IMG/VR virus record: IMGVR_UViG_3300031857_000124
Location: 4,496 to 68,495 of that record
Direction: 5' to 3' (one strand)
Length of the DNA: 64,000 bases
Source of the DNA: a virus
Shown here: positions 31,521 through 63,268 of the stretch, in pieces
Position numbering within the stretch: position 1 is the stretch's first letter
Layout of the letters: each line of letters begins with the position of its first letter
Notes under the pieces: model-generated
The model's database searches: none
Told to the model about the DNA's origin: nothing
The model's input: the letters and a program-made list of their open reading frames with translations, nothing else
Program-made: the position numbers and the translations under genes

Positions 31521-31738
31521 TCAAATGGTTTTGCCTCCCGGCATTTGCGCTAAACCGCGACAAATCTAATACAAAAAAGCTAAAAATCCTAATTAGCATT
31601 TATTTTAACAAAATAAATTTGACTAAGCATTAAATTGTGACTAATTTAGCCGCATTGGAATAAAGTTCAATGTCAATGTTTTGGTAGGTGATCAACTCCT
31701 GGGCAACGGCTCGGGAGTTGTTTTTTAAATGAACAATT

Positions 31739-40731: not shown

Positions 40732-41049
40732 TCAAAACGGCACCCCGTCGCTTTCGTAGACATACTCTCCCACAAGCTCTCTTCTGCCGGAATTATTGAT
40801 CTTGGTTAATATACTGTTTTCTGAGTCTGTTTCGTACCAGAACGCTACCGGCTCTCCCTGACTTTCATCCGGGTCAGGTAGCAATGTAATATTTTCCGGG
40901 ATGTAGACATACGACTTCCCGGCCTTTCTGCAGGCCAAGGCTTCCTTGCAAACAACTGTCAGGCTGTTCCCGGGAGGAGGAGTCCCTCCGCCAGAAAAGA
41001 TAGCCATGATGTCCTTGGTTTTGATTATTGGGACCGTGATTTTTGTCAT
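40732..41049 (-). CDS. Hypothetical protein
   Basis: Coupled ORF in the leftward operon. Confidence 0.6.
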   Translation of the reverse strand: MTKITVPIIKTKDIMAIFSGGGTPPPGNSLTVVCKEALACRKAGKSYVYIPENITLLPDPDESQGEPVAFWYETDSENSILTKINNSGRRELVGEYVYESDGVPF

Positions 41050-41555
41050 ACGATGATCTTGATTTTGCTGACGTGATCCATTATTGGATACCCCATATTG
41101 GTCAGGATTTCAAACACCTGATCGGCAACAGCCCGAAAAGCTTTTTCGACACTGTACTTCTTCACAAAGGTTTTGTTCTCCACATGACCGATGGTGCAGT
41201 ACGCTTTCTTGTACTTGAATTTGTCCCCGAGTTTTTGTTGCGAGAACTTGGGGTACAGTTTTCTCATGGACCATATTGCAATGTGACGAGCCCTGACGTA
41301 ATTCGCCTCATTGGTTTTTCCATCGGTGATGTCTTCCTGCGGAATAAGGGTCACCAGACTGACTGCTGATAGCACGTCTGCCCATACGTTCATTGCCGGG
41401 ATCTTTGATACGTCCTCGATTCTTTTCTGCACGATGTCGATCTGTTTGTATATCTCGAATTCGTACTCGGACTTTGCGATCTTCGCAAGGTCTGTCAACA
41501 TTTCCATTCTGTGGTTGGGATGGCAGAAGGCCACCATTCTTTCGATCTCTCTCAT
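41046..41555 (-). CDS. DnaA domain IV-like HTH protein (paralog 1)
   Basis: RARHIAIWSMRK..FSQQKLG..F..YCTIGH resembles the DnaA C-terminal domain. Confidence 0.6.
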   Translation of the reverse strand: MREIERMVAFCHPNHRMEMLTDLAKIAKSEYEFEIYKQIDIVQKRIEDVSKIPAMNVWADVLSAVSLVTLIPQEDITDGKTNEANYVRARHIAIWSMRKLYPKFSQQKLGDKFKYKKAYCTIGHVENKTFVKKYSVEKAFRAVADQVFEILTNMGYPIMDHVSKIKIIV

Positions 41556-42080: not shown

Positions 42081-42590
42081 TTAAATTATGATGTGCATTT
42101 TATTTACGTGAATAAGTATTGAGTAGCCCTTGGACTCAAGTATTTCGCAGGCCTGTAGCATGAGCGTTCTGAAGGATTTCTCTGTAGCGTAGAGGCTTGG
42201 CACGGACTTGTTCTCAACATGGCTGACGGTGCAGTGCTTTCGTGGGTGGTCAAACATATTCCCCAAGTTGGTCTGCGAGAAGTGCGGGGCCAGCTTCCTC
42301 ATAATCCAAATCGCGATGTGTCTTGGCCTTGCGTACTCCCTCTCGCGAGAGTGTGCCGACGTGATTAGATCCACAGGGACAAAGGTCACCTCACTGACCG
42401 CAGACAGTATGTCGTTCCACACGTCTTTGGGGGACATGGATTCGGGGGGCGTCGGGGCCTGTTGATCAGCATTAATCTGCCGATAAATTTCAAACTCAAA
42501 TTCGGGCTTGGCAACTTTCGCAAGTGTTGCCAGCATCTCGGCCCTGTGCGGGTATCGGCAAAAGGCTACTAAAGTTTCAATCTCGTTCAT
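42081..42590 (-). CDS. DnaA domain IV-like HTH protein (paralog 2)
   Basis: SREREYARPRHIAIWIMRK..FSQTNLG..F..RKHCTVSH, aligns end to end with 41046-41555. Confidence 0.65.
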   Translation of the reverse strand: MNEIETLVAFCRYPHRAEMLATLAKVAKPEFEFEIYRQINADQQAPTPPESMSPKDVWNDILSAVSEVTFVPVDLITSAHSREREYARPRHIAIWIMRKLAPHFSQTNLGNMFDHPRKHCTVSHVENKSVPSLYATEKSFRTLMLQACEILESKGYSILIHVNKMHIII

Positions 42591-42793: not shown

Positions 42794-42872
42794 AAATCAA
42801 CCCAGACCAACAACGGAAGCAAGAGTGTTCAAGCCGCCTCTCGACTTATATTGTTGCGGTCCGGGTCGAGAA

Positions 42873-43025
42873 TTAAATTTTGTACAACTCGTCTCCCGTT
42901 TCTTCGTAGAGCTTACTCATCAGTTGTCTCATTTTGGCGCTGTCTTCTATTGACGGACGAATCGACCTTCTTGCAGTCAACACAAACAGTTGCCGATGCA
43001 TTTCTCTTACCTCTTCTGATGCCAT
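42873..43025 (-). CDS. Small hypothetical protein
   Basis: ATG preceded by the A-rich sequence CAAAACAA. Confidence 0.5.
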   Translation of the reverse strand: MASEEVREMHRQLFVLTARRSIRPSIEDSAKMRQLMSKLYEETGDELYKI

Positions 43026-43036
43026 TTGTTTTGTAA

Positions 43037-43228
43037 TTAAGGTTTCAAGTACTTCCAGGTCCCCGCAACGGCCGGAATCATCAGTACATAAATCGCGATC
43101 TTCATCGCTCCATCGGAGAGTTCGGCGAAAGAAAGGAAGAGGATTATCACCACTATACAGCAAAGTATGGTGAACATCCCCCTCCCAGCTTCCTTCATTC
43201 CTCTCCCGAAATCGTCAAGGTACGACAT
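43037..43228 (-). CDS. Small two-TM membrane protein
   Basis: Hydrophobic ORF downstream of a minus-strand TATATTTG near 43270. Confidence 0.55.
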   Translation of the reverse strand: MSYLDDFGRGMKEAGRGMFTILCCIVVIILFLSFAELSDGAMKIAIYVLMIPAVAGTWKYLKP

Positions 43229-43390
43229 GGGTTTGATCTTTAATTCTAGATGTCTTGCAATTTTTTGCAAATATAAATCTATATGCGTTGTTTGTGCAAA
43301 TTATTTAACATTTAATGTTAAGAACTCCTAGATAATTTTCGGATCAATTCAAAAAAAATATAGGTTTTTTCGGTTTTTGTTTTACATTTG

Positions 43391-43492
43391 CTGCGTTCTC
43401 ACATTGCAGTGTTTGACGGCAGTGCAATGCGGGATGTAAGATCAAAATCTTACCCTGAAATGCCCTTGGTCCGTCAAACAAGGGCTTTTTTT
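43391..43492 (+). promoter_or_regulatory. Structured leader/attenuator with loop-loop complementarity
   Basis: Promoter element TACATTTG at 43383. Hairpin loop TTTGACGG is complementary to terminator loop CCGTCAAA. Confidence 0.7.
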
Positions 43493-44212
43493 ATGCCTAA
43501 GCGCACAGAAATATCAAGTATAATCTCAAGCGACACACTGTTTTCGAACGTAGAAAACATAAAGTGGCTTGAGAGGTTCGTTGAGTTCAAGCGGGCATTC
43601 CCAAACTCCGTGATATATAAATACTCTGCCTACCGAGTTGAAAAACTTGGGAGGTTAAAAATGTCACGTAACACAATCAAGAACACGATAGACAAGTTCA
43701 TCGAGCTTGGTTGGGCAACAAAGAATAAATCTCACCTCATTTTAATATCTAAAAACAAATTGTCTGCGCTCTATGGGGCAAAATCTCATAGAAAAATCAA
43801 ATTAGACACAACCCTATCCGTTAAGATTCAATTACAAGCAAAGGTGTTTAGCAGAGCCATCAATCGCTCTCGCTATGGTAAGTGCATGCAGGAAGTACAA
43901 GGTAAAAGCATCAGGCGTAAATACGCTAAATCACTCAGTGGCACTCCGCAGGAACTTTCTAGCAAAAAGATTGGGAAAATTTTTAACTCATCACAAACTC
44001 AAGCTCTAAGGGTGGTAAGAAGTCTGGAGAACAATGGGTGGATCACTGTACAACGGCAAAAACTCAAACATTTGGGTAAGTGTTCAGCCAAGCAGTGGCA
44101 GTTCAGAAAGGCGTGGTGGAACAAGAAGGAAAGTGTCGACAACTGCTTTTGGCATTTGGGGCATTTCTTCCATCTTCCATCTAATTCTTACCTCATGAAT
44201 AGCATACCCTAA
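43493..44212 (+). CDS. Basic tandem winged-helix DNA-binding protein
   Basis: Two HTH-like segments (MSRNTIKNTIDKFIELGW and SSQTQALRVVRSLENNGWI). Confidence 0.6.
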   Translation: MPKRTEISSIISSDTLFSNVENIKWLERFVEFKRAFPNSVIYKYSAYRVEKLGRLKMSRNTIKNTIDKFIELGWATKNKSHLILISKNKLSALYGAKSHRKIKLDTTLSVKIQLQAKVFSRAINRSRYGKCMQEVQGKSIRRKYAKSLSGTPQELSSKKIGKIFNSSQTQALRVVRSLENNGWITVQRQKLKHLGKCSAKQWQFRKAWWNKKESVDNCFWHLGHFFHLPSNSYLMNSIP

Positions 44213-44262
44213 AGATGCTAGAATTCCTAACCATTTTTTGACCAAGCAAAAAAAATCATCAA

Positions 44263-44862
44263 TCAAATAAGGCTCATTTTACTGAGGTAATCACACTCCT
44301 CATTCATTTCCCTTGGAATCCATTCTATTTCAATGTTTGAGAACGCCCCAAACATTTTCTTACACTCTAAGCCGTAGGGCAGGTACAGTCCGTTTGCCCC
44401 GAACCCCCACACCCCATTCATTTGATTGACAACTAGGCTGGAGTCCCCCCTGACAAGTATGTTGTGGTCAGAGAAACTGTTATCCATAAGCCAGCACAGG
44501 GCATCGTAGAGGGCTATGTACTCTGCTGTGTTGGCTGAGTTTTTTGTGCTGGCCTGCTGTCTTCCTGAGGATTGGTGTATCCACCTCCCCCCTTGTTCGA
44601 CATAAAACCCCCACCCCATCTGCCCGTATGGGTTGACTGGTTCGCAGCATCCGTCAAAGTACACTATTAGGTCGCGATTAAAGTGTTTAAACGTCTCCGA
44701 CTCTACCTCCGCCCAGTAGCGCTCGTAGTAGGCGGATACGGCAGGGTACTGACCCCCCTCCCACGTTTCTTTAATCCACCATGCGGGGGTGTCTATCATT
44801 CTTTTACCCTTGTGTACCCCGAACGGGAAGGTGTCGCTGTGTTTTGCATTTTTGTTAGTCAT
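44263..44862 (-). CDS. rnhA: RNase H1-like protein with N-terminal FPFGxHKG domain
   Basis: VYFDG, NTAEYIAL, RGDSSLVVNQ and WIPREMNEECD motifs. Confidence 0.85.
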   Translation of the reverse strand: MTNKNAKHSDTFPFGVHKGKRMIDTPAWWIKETWEGGQYPAVSAYYERYWAEVESETFKHFNRDLIVYFDGCCEPVNPYGQMGWGFYVEQGGRWIHQSSGRQQASTKNSANTAEYIALYDALCWLMDNSFSDHNILVRGDSSLVVNQMNGVWGFGANGLYLPYGLECKKMFGAFSNIEIEWIPREMNEECDYLSKMSLI

Positions 44863-48954: not shown

Positions 48955-49016
48955 TAGAACAAGGGCGGGAGTCGAACCCGCCAATGAACCAAGCCGTGTG
49001 GCCGTATCACTTGTTA
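48955..49016 (-). ncRNA. Mini tRNA-like element (acceptor plus T arm)
   Basis: GCGGG-TTCGACT-CCCGC T arm and AACAAG/CTTGTT stem. Confidence 0.5.
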
Positions 49017-49850: not shown

Positions 49851-49930
49851 TAGAACAACGGGGAGACTCGAACTCCCTGCGAATGTGGTAACCTCAGTTA
49901 GTCACACTTGCCGCACCTTGCGTCGTTGCT
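49851..49930 (-). ncRNA. Mini tRNA-like element (acceptor plus T arm, no D stem)
   Basis: AGCAACG/CGTTGTT acceptor and GGGAG-TTCGAGT-CTCCC T arm. Confidence 0.6.
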
Positions 49931-51217: not shown

Positions 51218-51321
51218 TATGCACGCATAGGATTGTAAGCTATGCACGCATAACACTGCACACTATGCACGCATAGCATCGCACCTTATGCACGCATAAC
51301 ACCATGTCCTATGCATGCATA
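51218..51321. repeat. Five TATGCACGCATA repeats with a 23-bp period
   Basis: Copies at 51218, 51241, 51264, 51287 and 51310 (last copy TATGCATGCATA), with unique 11-nt spacers. Confidence 0.9.
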
Positions 51322-51586
51322 ATACCGCGCCCAGTCCATGGGATATGGCCGCCGGTTTGTGGCTGATTATCAACGCTTTATACATAGCTGACTACCAAGT
51401 AGTTACCACTATGTGCCGCTCCTTATGCCTCCTGCTTCCCCGCTCTATATGGTTGACAGCCAATGCGTTACCTGTTGGGGGATAATTAGCTGTGGATCAG
51501 CGACTTAGTGCACCCACCCCATTTGCTAATTCGACTTCGGGAGCGGCAGGCGGCAGTGGTGGTGGGGGGGGTGACCCCCACCGCAG

Positions 51587-51669
51587 TTGGTTTACGTTTT
51601 TCAATAAAATCGCTTCACTACGCTTGGTTTACGTTTTTTCAATAAAATCCCTCCGCCACAGTTGGTTTA
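51587..51669. repeat. Direct repeats TTGGTTTACGTTTTT(T)CAATAAAATC
   Basis: Full copies at 51587 and 51624, partial copy at 51662. Confidence 0.8.
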
Positions 51670-51747
51670 TGAGTTTTCGGGGTTTTCTATGGTTAATTAA
51701 TTTTTTGTTGTAATTGATTGGTTGTGTATATTTGTAAAAAAAAAGTT

Positions 51748-60428: not shown

Positions 60429-62369
60429 TTATTCCCAGGCTTCCTTGTACCCGTTTGGGTGCGCTATGTCTTCGTTCCATTCTTTTGCTTCTTTTGAATC
60501 CGTCCAGTTTCTGTTAGGACTTACTGCGCTTGGTGTTTCTTGCTTAATTTCAATCTGGACAGCCCTCCCGTCTATTGCCTGTTGAAGGTAGTCTACACCG
60601 TCAAAGGTAAACCTCCTCGTGTTCCTCTGTAGTTGAAATTCAAACGACCCCTTTAGTCCAACTATCTTCTGTCTTCTGATCTTCTTACTGTGAAACTCGC
60701 ACACGGGGCTGTCTGGGGCTGTCTGAGCGAATGGACGGTGGTATATGATGATGTTATCCGCCTTGTTGTTCCACATCGCACCATCTGCAAGGTCAAACAC
60801 CTCTGGACAAGGATAATTCCCATCCTCTCCTTTTCTCATTTTGTGCGGGTGAACCACGATGTCGAAGTACACGTTGTTCTTCCTCGCAAACCGTGTGCAG
60901 TCAGAAAGGAAAGTTTCGAGGTACTTGTCGCTGCGTCCCGCACCCTTTGAGTAATCGTTTGCCATTTGGTTGAACGGATCAATAACCACCCTGTCAACTC
61001 CGTGCTTGATGATCAGGCTCAGGAACACCTCCTTCACGTAATCTGGTGTGGGGGCTACGTTCTTCGGGTACACCATGAAAATATGGTCTCCAATCATCTT
61101 GTACACCTTCATGTACGCATCGTATGATGGGCGTGTTGGGTTACTTGGTGTGCAGTCTCTCCCAAAGTAAATCTCTACAAGGTCGTGGTAGAACTGTTCG
61201 GCAGGCAGTTCCTCAGGAGTAAAGATGGCAACCCTCTCCCCAAACCTAACCATACGCATTATCATCTCCCACTTCATGAATGATGACTTTCCGTAGTTTC
61301 CTATTCCGGAAACAATTGTTAATTCGCCTTTAACTCTTTTGAAGTGCCTATCGAGCAATGGGACGCCGACGGGCATTGCTGCTTGATAACCCTTGAGGTA
61401 AATTTCCCCAGCCCTATCCATCACCTCCTCGGCATAGATTACGTCCTCCTTAGACATTTCATCGAGGTCCTCTTCGGTTAGCTCAATCTTAACCTCCTTG
61501 TGGCTACTCTTTGTAACTAACTGATCCTTAGTGAACTCGGCAGTATTCCACTGGCTCATGTTCGCCCTGTACGCACTACGGATGGCCTGGCGACACTCCT
61601 TCTGACTGAAGCTTGCATCAGGAACGACGTAGGTCATCATCATGCTGTAGCACGTCTCCTCGAGCATCCCGAACCTACAGCAGCTTGCGGCCAGCTTAAA
61701 AACGAAGTGATTCCTTTCCCCCTCACGGAACGCATCCCCCTTGGATGTCATCCACGTCAGCAGGTTGTTGAATATCTTGTCGTCATCGTTAATCGTTTCA
61801 GTGGTTGTCTGTTGGGGCAACCTTCTATCGGCCTTTTTTACAGGCAGTTTGTTGTACGTCTCGGCGTTCTCGTTGTACCAAAGATTGGGATCATACGACT
61901 CAAAGCAGAGTCGGGACAGGTTCTTTCCGGTCTTGTCAATGTCTGGAAAGTCATTCATTAAGGCCTCAAAGTGCTCTTTGTGCATGGTTTTCCATTCAAT
62001 TTGGACGAGCGCCTTCAATCCCTTGCCAGATGGGGAAGTCCAAACAGCTGTTATGTACCCTAAAGAGCACAGTTCTCTGCGTTTTTCGGCCATGTCTGAC
62101 ACGTTATCGAAGTCCAAAACAATGTACCCGGAATGTTCGACAAGTTCAGAGTCCTTTCGCTTTGAGAACGTGCCGCTGAAACAAACGGCAGGGAGTTTCT
62201 TTTTTAACTCGTCCGCCTCCTTCTTGGTTTTTGCTTGCCTCGCCTTGTTAACAAGCTCCTTTGACTTCCCATTCCTAATTCGTTCAAGTGCGCCCAACAC
62301 ACTAATTGTGTGTCCCTGCAGGTCGTTGAAGTCTTGGTAGATTGATACTTTACCATCTATTGGTCTCAT
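60429..62369 (-). CDS. Primase-helicase (BT4734/VirE-N-like AEP, PriCT, SF4 helicase)
   Basis: KKKLPAVCFSG, LDFD, SPSGKGLK, EGERNH, Walker A GIGNYGKS, VIDPFN and VVHP. Confidence 0.85.
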   Translation of the reverse strand: MRPIDGKVSIYQDFNDLQGHTISVLGALERIRNGKSKELVNKARQAKTKKEADELKKKLPAVCFSGTFSKRKDSELVEHSGYIVLDFDNVSDMAEKRRELCSLGYITAVWTSPSGKGLKALVQIEWKTMHKEHFEALMNDFPDIDKTGKNLSRLCFESYDPNLWYNENAETYNKLPVKKADRRLPQQTTTETINDDDKIFNNLLTWMTSKGDAFREGERNHFVFKLAASCCRFGMLEETCYSMMMTYVVPDASFSQKECRQAIRSAYRANMSQWNTAEFTKDQLVTKSSHKEVKIELTEEDLDEMSKEDVIYAEEVMDRAGEIYLKGYQAAMPVGVPLLDRHFKRVKGELTIVSGIGNYGKSSFMKWEMIMRMVRFGERVAIFTPEELPAEQFYHDLVEIYFGRDCTPSNPTRPSYDAYMKVYKMIGDHIFMVYPKNVAPTPDYVKEVFLSLIIKHGVDRVVIDPFNQMANDYSKGAGRSDKYLETFLSDCTRFARKNNVYFDIVVHPHKMRKGEDGNYPCPEVFDLADGAMWNNKADNIIIYHRPFAQTAPDSPVCEFHSKKIRRQKIVGLKGSFEFQLQRNTRRFTFDGVDYLQQAIDGRAVQIEIKQETPSAVSPNRNWTDSKEAKEWNEDIAHPNGYKEAWE

Positions 62370-63057
62370 CTGTAGTAGGTGTTTGTTTTATCGTTTGTTT
62401 TGTTTGTGTTTCATCCTCCCATCTCCTGTCGCGAAGGTATCGCACAGGATCCTTCCAGTACTTGCGTTCGCGCCCCGATTTGTGGTTCCCCATGCACTCC
62501 ACGGCAAGTATGCGATCTTTTTCATGCAGTTTGTTCCATGCAGCTTCTGCTTGTTTCTTGTCCACTTTCTTGTCGTAAGCCATCCAAAACTGCTCGAAAG
62601 AATACTTATTTTCTTCTTTTACTTTATTCTTTTTATTATGTGAGCATTCCTGAGCAGGGGTATGCTCATTTTTGAGCAGGGGGTATGCAGGTTTTTGAGC
62701 AGGGGTATGCTCAAAAAAATCATCTTCCTCATTTTCAGACACTGGTATCTCGGGGGTAACTGTTCTGCTTAAAATGTCGGCATCTGGATTTATAGTTAAA
62801 CATCTAACCTCAACCTCATTTCTGGTATTGAGTTTCACAATTCTCCCCAAAACACCTTTCTGTTCGAGATCAGCAATTATCCGTCTCACACTGTGCTTGG
62901 ATATCCCAAGGCATTCACCCAGATAATGATTTGAGGCAAAGCAATAGCCCCTGATGTTTGATAAATTCGAAATAACCCCTATAAGGAGTTTTTCCGTGGA
63001 TGATAATTCCTTGCTAAGCAACACACTTGCAGGGATAATTGAATATTGATTGTGCAT
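62350..63057 (-). CDS. HTH replication initiator (lambda O-like architecture)
   Basis: GYCFASNHYL HTH, FEQFWMAYDKK C-terminal domain, internal iteron-like repeats. Confidence 0.75.
   Translation of the reverse strand: MHNQYSIIPASVLLSKELSSTEKLLIGVISNLSNIRGYCFASNHYLGECLGISKHSVRRIIADLEQKGVLGRIVKLNTRNEVEVRCLTINPDADILSRTVTPEIPVSENEEDDFFEHTPAQKPAYPLLKNEHTPAQECSHNKKNKVKEENKYSFEQFWMAYDKKVDKKQAEAAWNKLHEKDRILAVECMGNHKSGRERKYWKDPVRYLRDRRWEDETQTKQTIKQTPTTDETNRW
62651..62713. repeat. Iteron-like repeats TGAGCAGGGGTATGC (x3) inside the initiator gene
   Basis: Copies at 62651, 62673 and 62696. Confidence 0.8.
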
Positions 63058-63166
63058 GATAAAATAAAAAAGCCCCGTGTAAGGCACCGGGGCTTGGGTT
63101 GGTCAAACTTGCGTTCAACTTGCCAAACCCTTCTTTTCGGCCTTACTCAAAAAGAAGGAATTGGCA
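63058..63166 (-). promoter_or_regulatory. Structured leader/attenuator with loop-loop complementarity
   Basis: Hairpin loop GTAAGGC is complementary to terminator loop GCCTTAC. U-tract precedes the ATG. Confidence 0.7.
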
Positions 63167-63268
63167 CAAATACATCGCAAAGATAATCCTGTTTTTTCAC
63201 TTGTCAAGACTTTACTCATATTTTTTTCAGTCTATTGACACAGTGCATATTATTTGTATATTTGCCGC

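Follow-up and report, generated by a model that had tools for sequence, protein, structure and literature searches.

The rep leaders of plasmids pT181, pIP501 and pAMbeta1 are controlled by antisense-RNA-driven transcription attenuation; in the pT181 type, a counter-transcript from the opposite strand binds and refolds the leader so that a terminator forms. Among the C4 RNAs of phages P1 and P7, relatives differ by matched changes in both partners. The CI RNA of P4 has its pairing partners, seqA and seqC, in its own transcript, and IsrK of the Gifsy-1 prophage has a short form that acts in trans on the translation of its own read-through transcript (both in the available text of PMC4825925). 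In corrinoid riboswitches, terminators come under the control of a sensor loop that kisses a regulatory hairpin, and the L5-L13 kissing loop stabilises the regulatory hairpin to which it belongs (available text of PMC5028336 and PMC10327014). In 'tug-of-war' antitermination, upstream structures act on intrinsic terminators (bioRxiv 10.64898/2026.06.17.733018, available text).

Structure, promoter and closest relatives in design

The window, that is, the whole stretch of 64,000 nucleotides that was analysed, carries a unit (copy 1) with the following features.

43383-43390, + strand: -7 promoter box TACATTTG, Bacteroidota-type TAnnTTTG
43397-43434, + strand: hairpin 1, full extent in the fold; core CATTGCA (43402-43408) and TGCAATG (43423-43429)
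43410-43419, + strand: L1, TGTTTGACGG, the segment of the hairpin 1 loop that pairs with L3
43436-43453, + strand: hairpin 2, GTAAGAT-caaa-ATCTTAC, 7 bp, loop CAAA
43462-43492, + strand: intrinsic terminator, 7-bp stem, 10-nt loop and T7; arms GCCCTTG (43462-43468) and CAAGGGC (43479-43485)
43471-43480, + strand: L3, CCGTCAAACA, the exact reverse complement of 43410-43419
43486-43492, + strand: T7 tract, followed by ATG at 43493
43493-44212, + strand: gene for a 239-aa protein with two winged-helix domains

The promoter box, the three hairpins and the terminator with its T7 tract abutting the ATG, which a first-pass annotation had reported, are each present, and the exact 10-nt complement that it described between the first loop and the terminator loop with its 3' arm was confirmed (43410-43419 and 43471-43480). 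The terminator loop contributes eight bases to L3, from its 3' side, and the 3' arm its first two. About 61 bp separate the centre of L1 from that of L3, each of which lies in its own hairpin loop, and 7-10 unpaired nucleotides separate hairpin 2 from the terminator. Copy 1 is convergent to the NinB operon and lies between two leftward gene blocks.

The likeness to P4 CI and P1/P7 C4 lies in a regulator and target carried on one transcript upstream of replication or antirepressor genes, with premature termination as the outcome, which here would be the predicted one. At this locus a candidate regulator and its complementary target lie in one predicted transcript and change together among relatives. 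CI and C4, however, are cut from a precursor, are antisense RNAs in lysogens and form a defined covariance family, whereas here the target is the terminator's own loop and the 61 proteins scanned include no lysogeny genes. An Rfam scan, proposed in the first-pass annotation, placed neither unit in a family: at the gathering score there was no match in the whole window or in four related loci, and at E values up to 10 the two units gave chance sub-threshold matches only (for example, Phe_leader, PyrR and ctRNA_p42d), with C4 absent. The element resembles P4 CI and P1 C4 in logic only and is not a member of that family.

The rep leaders of pT181, pIP501 and pAMbeta1 are similar in that an intrinsic terminator stands just before the replication initiator, as it does in a second unit (copy 2, below), and in that the decisive RNA contact is made through loops. 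Unlike in pT181-type control, both partners here are on the sense RNA. A terminator directly before a replication initiator is found at copy 2; an antisense promoter is not. Scanning for the TAnnTTTG type revealed no antisense box within copy 1 or copy 2 of the window and none conserved in relatives (common to 0 of 8 copy-1 relatives); an antisense -7 box was present in three of the seven copy-2 leaders checked, about 215 nt into the scanned region (leader plus 250 nt). With no conserved antisense -7 box of this type, countertranscript control was rejected.

As in corrinoid riboswitches, an upstream structure would kiss the loop of a downstream regulatory hairpin in the same transcript. There, a large aptamer that binds the ligand provides the upstream partner, the kissing loop needs the cofactor for its stability, and the contact decides a terminator or a translation start (available text of PMC5028336 and PMC10327014). 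Here, in contrast, the partner is a plain hairpin, the helix has 7-10 bp (-12 to -19 kcal/mol) with no evident ligand pocket, and the kissing loop is carried by the terminator hairpin itself; neither unit matched the Rfam Cobalamin models, and hairpin 1 is a simple stem-loop. IsrK is comparable in that the terminator of a small-RNA unit is partly read through into what lies downstream, giving short and long forms from one promoter, and it differs in that loop-loop pairing with its own terminator is not described in the available text (PMC4825925). In tug-of-war antitermination, a stable upstream secondary or tertiary structure likewise alters terminator efficiency without overlapping the arms, but it must sit immediately upstream and acts sterically (available text of bioRxiv 10.64898/2026.06.17.733018), whereas here 7-10 unpaired nucleotides precede the terminator, whose loop has a conserved base-paired contact.

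The three-hairpin fold of copy 1 comes to -37.5 kcal/mol (z = -4.1; matched by 0 of 200 shuffles) and the L1:L3 duplex to -15.4 kcal/mol (equalled by 1 of 5,000 shuffles of the terminator-loop letters), although, because the sequences are related, shuffle controls are not probabilities. At 0 mismatches, the copy 1 10-mer occurs at its two sites only within the 64 kb; allowing up to one mismatch, L1 has 11 matches against 4.9 expected, two of which are the element itself. Eight sites in the window are terminator-like by strict definition, and an upstream complement of at least 7 nt was found at copy 1 and copy 2 only, with decoy controls (reversed, or complemented only) giving 0 each. In both copies, a G+C-rich stem directly before a U tract, kept in relatives, marks a predicted intrinsic terminator.

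Bacteroidota promoters have the consensus -33 TTTG / -7 TAnnTTTG, and we take TACATTTG at 43383-43390 to be a -7 box of this type. Copy-1 relatives conserve both the -7 box and a TTG 19-21 nt upstream. The window's own copy 1 has no -33 TTG at 17-21 nt; the TTG is present in relatives and in copy 2. The window has 20 occurrences of the combination TTG-N17-21-TAnnTTTG, where simulations gave 5.0 +/- 2.7. A sigma-70-like site at 43413-43442 was rejected: it falls inside L1 and hairpin 2, relatives do not share it, and promoters in this phage are of another type.

The phage probably infects a freshwater member of the Bacteroidota. Its portal protein matched 84 records, all 84 from Flavobacterium, Cellulophaga or Maribacter phages (among the matches listed, identity was 21-24%), and the sequencing runs that contain 42800-44400 are all DNA, mostly freshwater metagenomes. 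No DNA match was found among the cultured phages of the phage collection, no integrase or repressor among the 61 proteins scanned, and no prophage or host copy in genome contigs, which gave two weak, unrelated matches only.

Conservation of the loop-loop pairing

Loss of the loop complementarity in relatives had been set beforehand as the result that would overturn the first-pass annotation. We found the opposite: the pairing is kept in 15 of 15 distinct copy-1 relatives (viral and metagenome contigs) and a complement of at least 7 nt in 33 of 33 distinct copy-2 leaders, with matched changes that give seven different loop addresses in the former and three core addresses in the latter, numbers that may reflect few events. 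Nine chance pattern matches in metagenome contigs (L054, L055, L057, L058, L061, L065, L066, L068 and L069), unrelated sequences in which the rest of the element is absent, were excluded before counting. A strict architecture scan of the first 40 kb of Cellulophaga phage phi46:3, a distant cultured relative, found no such unit.

In alignment A4 of copy 1 (15 distinct rows), four of the nine L1:L3 pairs show a change in each partner; 96.7% of cells pair, and the three that do not reflect a misplaced gap in the L031 type. The L1:L3 helix of copy 2 (A3, 19 distinct rows) has seven pairs, three of them changed on both sides, with 97% of cells paired. Over the whole structure, 95.9% of copy 1 is paired; sliding the partners by 1-3 columns lowers this to 36-49%. 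For copy 2 the corresponding values are 98.3% and, after sliding, 35-56%. The copy-1 terminator stem is paired in 100% of cells over 15 distinct rows, with one compensatory pair, and T7-T9 tracts follow it in 16 copy-1 sequences. A hairpin persists at the position of hairpin 2 in copy-1 relatives, with a different sequence. Hairpin 1 of copy 1 is 98.9% paired over 15 distinct rows, but these close relatives were found with a pattern built from its arms and the invariance of this stem is therefore an ascertainment artefact.

The kissing columns are about ten times more variable than the terminator stem (0.21-0.23 versus 0.02 differences per column). For each of the seven copy-1 address types, L1 binds the L3 of its own type best, and the addresses are partly orthogonal (-15.4 kcal/mol for the cognate partner versus -5.2 with an L029-type target). 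In copy 2, whose leaders were collected without such bias, one helix varies about as fast as another, and the address is exchanged regardless of which variant of the hairpin 1 stem or of hairpin 2 a leader carries. Only the sense strand tolerates G-U pairs (A4 and A3), one of them within the L1:L3 pairing of L036, and antisense matches score far lower, which identifies the sense RNA as the selected molecule. Judged from these alignments, the L1:L3 pairing is under selection and forms a long-range helix of 7-10 bp, a kissing loop or a pseudoknot, whose address changes freely.

An inverted repeat co-evolving with a binding protein would also keep its reverse complementarity, and a tandem winged-helix gene adjoins copy 1 in this phage. 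L1 and L3 could then be the inverted operator half-sites of a dimeric DNA-binding protein, matched changes keeping the symmetry. We consider such a DNA-level element highly improbable: the half-sites would be about 61 bp apart, each exactly in its own hairpin loop; the winged-helix gene is absent from 14 of the 15 distinct relatives that keep the pairing; ten addresses would require ten matching protein specificities; and the G-U tolerance in L036, the conserved promoter upstream and the U tract downstream all argue against it.

Downstream genes and the second copy

The 239-aa protein encoded after copy 1 has weak MarR/Crp HTH matches, below Pfam cut-offs; its AF2 model (pLDDT 94.9) has two winged-helix units with weak structural neighbours only, and a word-index search for homologues returned the protein itself only. 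The gene was found in this phage and one relative (L030), which share the start at 43493 and a T tract abutting the ATG. In 13 of the 15 distinct relatives, the copy 1 terminator leads instead into a non-coding block, itself conserved, with no protein gene. The annotated role of copy 1 as leader of the winged-helix gene thus stands for the window and L030 and falls as a general rule; because those 13 have no protein gene after the terminator, a leader of a gene is not evident for most of the copy-1 family. A leader peptide was also considered and rejected, because L030 does not share the leader ATGs at 43427 and 43460, which the database calls of 250 and 274 aa use.

The second copy that the first-pass annotation had supposed exists, on the opposite strand and before the replication genes.

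63185-63055, - strand: copy 2, whole unit, same design as copy 1 with a different sequence
63178-63185, - strand: -7 box TATCTTTG, with TTG 19 nt upstream (63207-63178)
63121-63166, - strand: hairpin 1, with L1 = GTAAGGC at 63146-63140
63102-63119, - strand: hairpin 2, 7 bp, loop GCAA
63066-63093, - strand: terminator GCCCCG/CGGGGC, 10-nt loop, T6
63085-63079, - strand: L3 = GCCTTAC; the ATG of the gene is at 63057-63055
62350-63057, - strand: gene for a replication initiation protein (HTH_36; phrog_270)
60429-62369: primase/helicase gene, next after the replication initiator

A covariance model built on copy 1 (R1) found copy 2 as its next-best match in the 64 kb (23.3 bits, E = 5.5e-4), and the model built on copy 2 (R2) found copy 1 likewise (18.9 bits, E = 0.06). 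With filters off, R1 and R2 returned these two units and no further copies in the window, and each of four near-complete related genomes contains one R1 match and one R2 match. On these matches, copies 1 and 2 are one RNA class with two families. Copy 2 directly precedes the ATG of the replication initiator in 33 of 33 distinct leaders, and the distance from T tract to ATG is 0-9 nt, with no space for a further promoter.

These positions bear on the possibility that the unit is a stand-alone structural small RNA that binds protein or is antisense to leftward read-through transcripts. Nothing downstream would be gated, the terminator would merely end the RNA and L1:L3 would merely compact or stabilise it. 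The unit's own conserved promoter and terminator, the lack of an ORF after it in 13 of 15 distinct relatives and its placement, with leftward gene blocks on both sides and the NinB operon converging on it, are consistent with this reading, which nevertheless looks improbable to us: the paralogous copy 2 stands directly before the initiator ATG in all 33 distinct leaders, the T tract abuts the ATG in the window and L030, and L1 has no trans target in the window, where none of its 11 matches is at a plausible target site.

Possible action within one transcript or between molecules

We consider it about evenly balanced whether copy 1 is a promoter-proximal attenuator that is tuned by the loop-loop helix and forms a self-contained transcription unit. 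In such a unit, a Bacteroidota-type promoter would drive a non-coding RNA of about 95-100 nt with three hairpins that ends at the intrinsic terminator. Most polymerases would stop at the U tract, releasing the small RNA, and the L1:L3 helix would set the fraction that reads through into whatever is downstream. In this phage that would be the tandem winged-helix gene, in most relatives the conserved non-coding block, and at copy 2 the operon of replication initiator and primase/helicase. That the promoter is used, that the 3' end falls at the U tract and that polymerase reads through are all predictions from sequence.

Gating is consistent with the placement of copy 2 before the replication genes and with the folding energies of copy 1. 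While the 3' arm of copy 1 is still untranscribed, the L1:L3 helix gives the nascent RNA its lowest energy (-30.0 kcal/mol); the full-length RNA favours the three hairpins (-37.5 versus -30.6 kcal/mol with the L1:L3 helix). In copy 2, hairpin 1 is too stable to open (-31.7 versus -26.0 kcal/mol), and the L1:L3 pairing of the window's copy 2 stays off the terminator arm. Sequestration of the terminator, as by a classical antiterminator, is impossible because pairing in the terminator loop takes only 1-2 nt of the arm. We lean towards docking that lowers termination, through competition with the upper part of the short terminator stem or strain on it, the direction being a guess. The effect could also run the opposite way if docking pre-organises and stabilises the large-looped terminator, by analogy with L5-L13 of corrinoid riboswitches.

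The same RNA could instead be self-addressed and act in trans, with logic like that of P4 CI or IsrK. The terminated RNA of about 95 nt would accumulate, dock through L1 and L3, possibly as a head-to-tail dimer, on nascent leaders of the same address and change their termination, serving the genes downstream as a timer, as a counter of copy number or as a means of lineage-specific incompatibility. Such a device would account for kissing letters that change as fast as unconstrained linkers while complementarity is always kept, for seven partly orthogonal addresses among otherwise near-identical copy-1 units and for different addresses on the two units of one genome; the unit also stands alone in most relatives, like a small-RNA gene, and IsrK and P4 CI RNA offer precedents (available text of PMC4825925). 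We nonetheless think it rather unlikely. With the partners 50 nt apart in one molecule, docking in cis should outcompete docking in trans; the helices of copy 2 vary alike, and the addresses therefore need no special diversification; the 61 proteins and the genome contigs give no sign of lysogeny; and copy-1 L1 pairs with copy-2 L3 at a cross energy of -9.2 kcal/mol, which is not negligible. A more specific form of this idea, in which the loop letters are an address and the docking of the terminated RNA lets each lineage count its own transcripts or genome copies and distinguish co-infecting relatives, seems to us a doubtful proposition. If true, it would mean an RNA-only timer or incompatibility system that gates replication genes in apparently lytic Bacteroidota phages, with two insulated channels per genome.

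In the full-text literature searched, we found no phage terminator loop reported to pair with a leader loop upstream of it, and RNA-based control of Bacteroidota phage replication genes was absent from the literature searched. Gene control in Bacteroidota phages is almost unknown. Here, a single RNA design is found twice per genome, with a promoter, three hairpins and a terminator loop base-paired to the loop of the first hairpin, and the design is kept in every related genome examined while the pairing letters change. It raises the question of whether loops in contact with each other are enough to tune an intrinsic terminator when no domain binds a ligand. Should the variable addresses work from one molecule to another, they would represent a new kind of self-recognition between competing phages.

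Two units of one design

Copy 1 is a rightward unit with a leftward gene block on either side, and a leftward promoter (43299-43268) is placed back to back with it. The first-pass annotation had described a promoter box, three hairpins, the last of them a terminator, and a loop complement at 43383-43495, and we found all of these parts where it had placed them.

Copy 1 (plus strand; from sequence reading, with hairpin 1 extended by folding)
43383-43390 (+), promoter box TACATTTG
43397-43434 (+), hairpin 1 as extended by the fold; core arms 43402-43408 and 43423-43429
43410-43419 (+), L1, the hairpin 1 loop segment, TGTTTGACGG, exact complement of L3
43436-43453 (+), hairpin 2
43462-43468 and 43479-43485 (+), terminator arms, enclosing a 10-nt loop
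43471-43480 (+), L3, CCGTCAAACA
43486-43492 (+), T7 tract; ATG at 43493

L3 lies in the terminator loop, on its 3' side, and extends two bases into the 3' arm. Several results speak against a chance origin of copy 1: at zero mismatches the 10-mer occurs at these two sites only in the window, the RNA reaches -37.5 kcal/mol (z = -4.1) when folded as three hairpins, and the L1:L3 duplex (-15.4 kcal/mol) was equalled by only 1 of 5000 loop shuffles. The frame of the following winged-helix (wHTH) gene is open through the leader (window 43388-43492), and public gene calls place its start within the RNA element, giving proteins of 250 and 274 aa. As the ATG at 43460 is not kept in L030, the only one of the related loci found with the wHTH gene after copy 1, comparison of the sequences makes 43493 the likely start.

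No direct repeat of the copy 1 sequence was found in the window. We scanned for terminators that have a complement upstream and then read the sequence, which revealed a second unit of the same design.

Copy 2 (minus strand; from sequence reading, the terminator also from the scan)
63185-63055 (-), whole unit
-7 box TATCTTTG, with TTG 19 nt upstream
Hairpin 1, long, with GTAAGGC in the loop
Hairpin 2, 7 bp
Terminator, 10-nt loop with GCCTTAC
T6 tract, with an ATG 8 nt beyond

Both direct reading and the terminator scan give an L1:L3 complement of 7 nt in copy 2, and the distance from the start of the complement to the terminator is 52 nt in copy 1 and 53 nt in copy 2. This locus has a back-to-back pair of full Bacteroidota-type promoters, one (63235-63264, +) facing rightward genes that lead to terminase and the other (63207-63178, -) driving copy 2 and the replication operon. 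A hairpin at 31693-31726 (+), with a 7-bp stem, a 14-nt loop, T6 and an ATG 2 nt downstream, was rejected as a third unit; it is terminator-like, but its loop has no upstream complement.

We then compared the units through covariance models of the copy-1 family (R1, built from copy-1 sequences alone) and the copy-2 family (R2). The next-best R1 match in the window was copy 2 (23.3 bits, E 5.5e-4), the next-best R2 match was copy 1 (18.9 bits, E 0.06), and nothing in the window scored beyond these two. Each of four near-complete related genomes (62-70 kb, three with terminal repeats) contains one R1 and one R2 match, and a 68%-complete related fragment contains an R1 match only. Judged by these models, the units form one class. 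The Rfam scan that had been proposed matched neither unit, nor any of four related loci, to a family. Phage RNAs that target themselves are already known, as are attenuators and kissing loops; in Rfam and in full-text literature searches we found no ligand-free leader with the loop of a simple hairpin paired to that of the terminator itself, occurring in two copies per genome and with addresses (the sequence of the L1:L3 pairing) that vary.

Covariation of the loop pairing

A covariation check had also been proposed, and it found loop complementarity conserved among relatives, in 15 of 15 copy-1 elements and 33 of 33 distinct copy-2 leaders. The wHTH protein has a single close relative in IMG/VR. 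In the leader of that relative, neither L1 nor L3 has the sequence seen in the window, and the two are still complementary over 10 nt; its terminator stem holds a compensatory pair too. With the arms of hairpin 1 as a pattern, a scan of viral and metagenome contigs returned 47 loci. These comprise 24 distinct sequences, 15 of which are the element. The other nine are unrelated chance matches in which the rest of the element is absent, and they were left out. Because the hairpin 1 stem was the search pattern, its invariance in the copy-1 set is meaningless. The 15 elements carry seven different addresses, and every L1 binds best to its own type of L3. A 16-sequence alignment (15 distinct rows) has nine L1:L3 pairs, four of which have changed in both partners. 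Of the cells in this helix 96.7% are paired, and the three exceptions reflect a gap placed wrongly. For the structure as a whole the figure is 95.9%, compared with 36-49% when partners are slid. The kissing columns differ between sequences at 0.21-0.23 per column, a level similar to that of the unpaired linkers, compared with 0.02 in the terminator stem.

Copy-2 relatives were found through the protein, so that ascertainment of the RNA is unbiased. In 22 leaders plus the window, three of the seven L1:L3 pairs are altered on both sides and 97% of cells are paired; the figure for the whole structure is 98.3% (35-56% when slid). A wider set of 80 loci yielded 44 full-length R2 matches and nine cut by the locus end. 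The 27 loci without a match comprise one at a contig end and 26 with a C-terminal protein match only, in which the 400-nt flank falls short of the gene start. The 33 distinct leaders, including the window, have a complement of at least 7 nt from the hairpin 1 loop to the terminator loop. Three core addresses combine freely with the various hairpin 1 stems and forms of hairpin 2, and the T tract lies 5-9 nt from the initiator gene ATG in all.

These comparisons show a conserved RNA, predicted to form three hairpins and to end in a terminator-like hairpin with a U tract, and they show selection on the L1:L3 helix. The selected molecule is the sense RNA, as G-U pairs are tolerated on the sense strand and antisense matches score far lower; a DNA operator of inverted half-sites is unlikely. 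That this conserved structure is a structural small RNA with another role seems rather unlikely.

Genome setting and sequences behind the units

The window belongs to a 68,495-bp virus record rated complete, with structural genes rightward over 1-35 kb and early and replication genes mostly leftward. Among 61 proteins scanned we recognised no integrase, repressor or antiterminator, and no prophage copy was found in the genome contigs searched. The portal protein matches phages of Flavobacterium, Cellulophaga and Maribacter only (84 of 84 records), the Bacteroidota promoter motif is enriched four-fold in the window, and the datasets that contain the sequence are mostly freshwater metagenomes. 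Repeat arrays of five 23-bp units (TATGCACGCATA...) and three 37-38-bp units, at 51218-51332 and 51575-51676 in a gene-poor stretch between leftward blocks, are candidate replication-origin iterons. Two hairpins (48964-48982 and 49861-49877, both -) resemble tRNA T arms, with GGTTCGAcTCC-like loops and a similar tail after each (C-T/G-TTGTTCTA); ARAGORN detected no tRNA in the window, and the hairpins could be mini-elements resembling tRNA or remnants of tRNAs at the ends of genes.

The proteins encoded after copy 1 and copy 2 are unrelated to each other. Copy 2 is followed by a replication initiation protein (HTH_36, phrog_270) and then a primase/helicase. Copy 1 is followed by a 239-aa protein with two winged-helix domains, weak Pfam matches and an AF2 model of pLDDT 94.9. 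Its structural neighbours are weak and mostly wHTH regulators. Its N-terminal half has a weak likeness to RepA_N-type plasmid initiators (4pta_D, with Z 6.5 and an rmsd of 4.0 over 97 residues; E 0.07-0.09 for 4pql and 5kbj) that assigns no function. The leftward block adjoining copy 1 encodes paralogous 169-aa proteins (41046-41555 and 42081-42590, both -) with a DnaA C-terminal HTH domain.

Copy 1 had been annotated as the leader of the wHTH gene, a description that holds only in the window and L030. In 13 of the 15 distinct relatives, the terminator is directly followed by a non-coding block starting ACCC or CCCC (L031:1310-1507, and the same place in the related loci L033-L037, L077 and L080). 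The block is about 190 nt long in the eight distinct sequences readable in full and then meets a convergent NinB gene. It is extremely conserved, about 80 nt of it forming a pyrimidine-rich tract that is invariant, and the consensus fold of the eight sequences is -41.7 on the small-RNA strand versus -24.2 kcal/mol on the opposite one. The window lacks the block, and genes for the wHTH protein and an RNase H stand in its place; in another related locus, L029, the terminator is followed by a different sequence again. Since the sequences behind the terminator vary among relatives, copy 1 appears to be a stand-alone promoter-to-terminator unit with variable downstream cargo, and in phages that have the non-coding block, this may be the cargo under regulation.

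Loop docking and termination

L1:L3 is the sole conserved pairing that touches the terminator. In both families L3 lies against the 3' arm, reaching 1-2 nt into it in most members, with a linker of 2-3 nt 5' of L3. For a nascent copy 1 RNA ending just after L3, the L1:L3 helix is preferred (-30.0); for the complete RNA, the three hairpins are preferred (-37.5 versus -30.6). Hairpin 1 of copy 2 is too stable to open, so that only a loop-loop contact is plausible there. We lean towards the view that docking would weaken the short terminator by taking its top stem pairs and adding bulky tertiary structure, which fits the suppression of intrinsic termination by upstream structures described in a preprint (bioRxiv 10.64898/2026.06.17.733018). 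By analogy, docking could equally stabilise a regulatory hairpin, as does the kissing loop of the corrinoid riboswitch (PMC5028336, PMC10327014).

It is also conceivable, if rather unlikely, that the terminated RNA acts in trans on nascent leaders with the same address. Such action would fit addresses that change fast and are partly orthogonal, as well as units that stand alone, and IsrK and P4 CI offer precedents (PMC4825925); however, docking in cis should win, and the kissing helix of copy 2 is without excess variation. Returning to docking in cis, we infer that the unit is an attenuator. The copy 2 terminator precedes the operon of the initiator and primase/helicase with no space for another promoter, so some read-through into these replication genes would have to occur.
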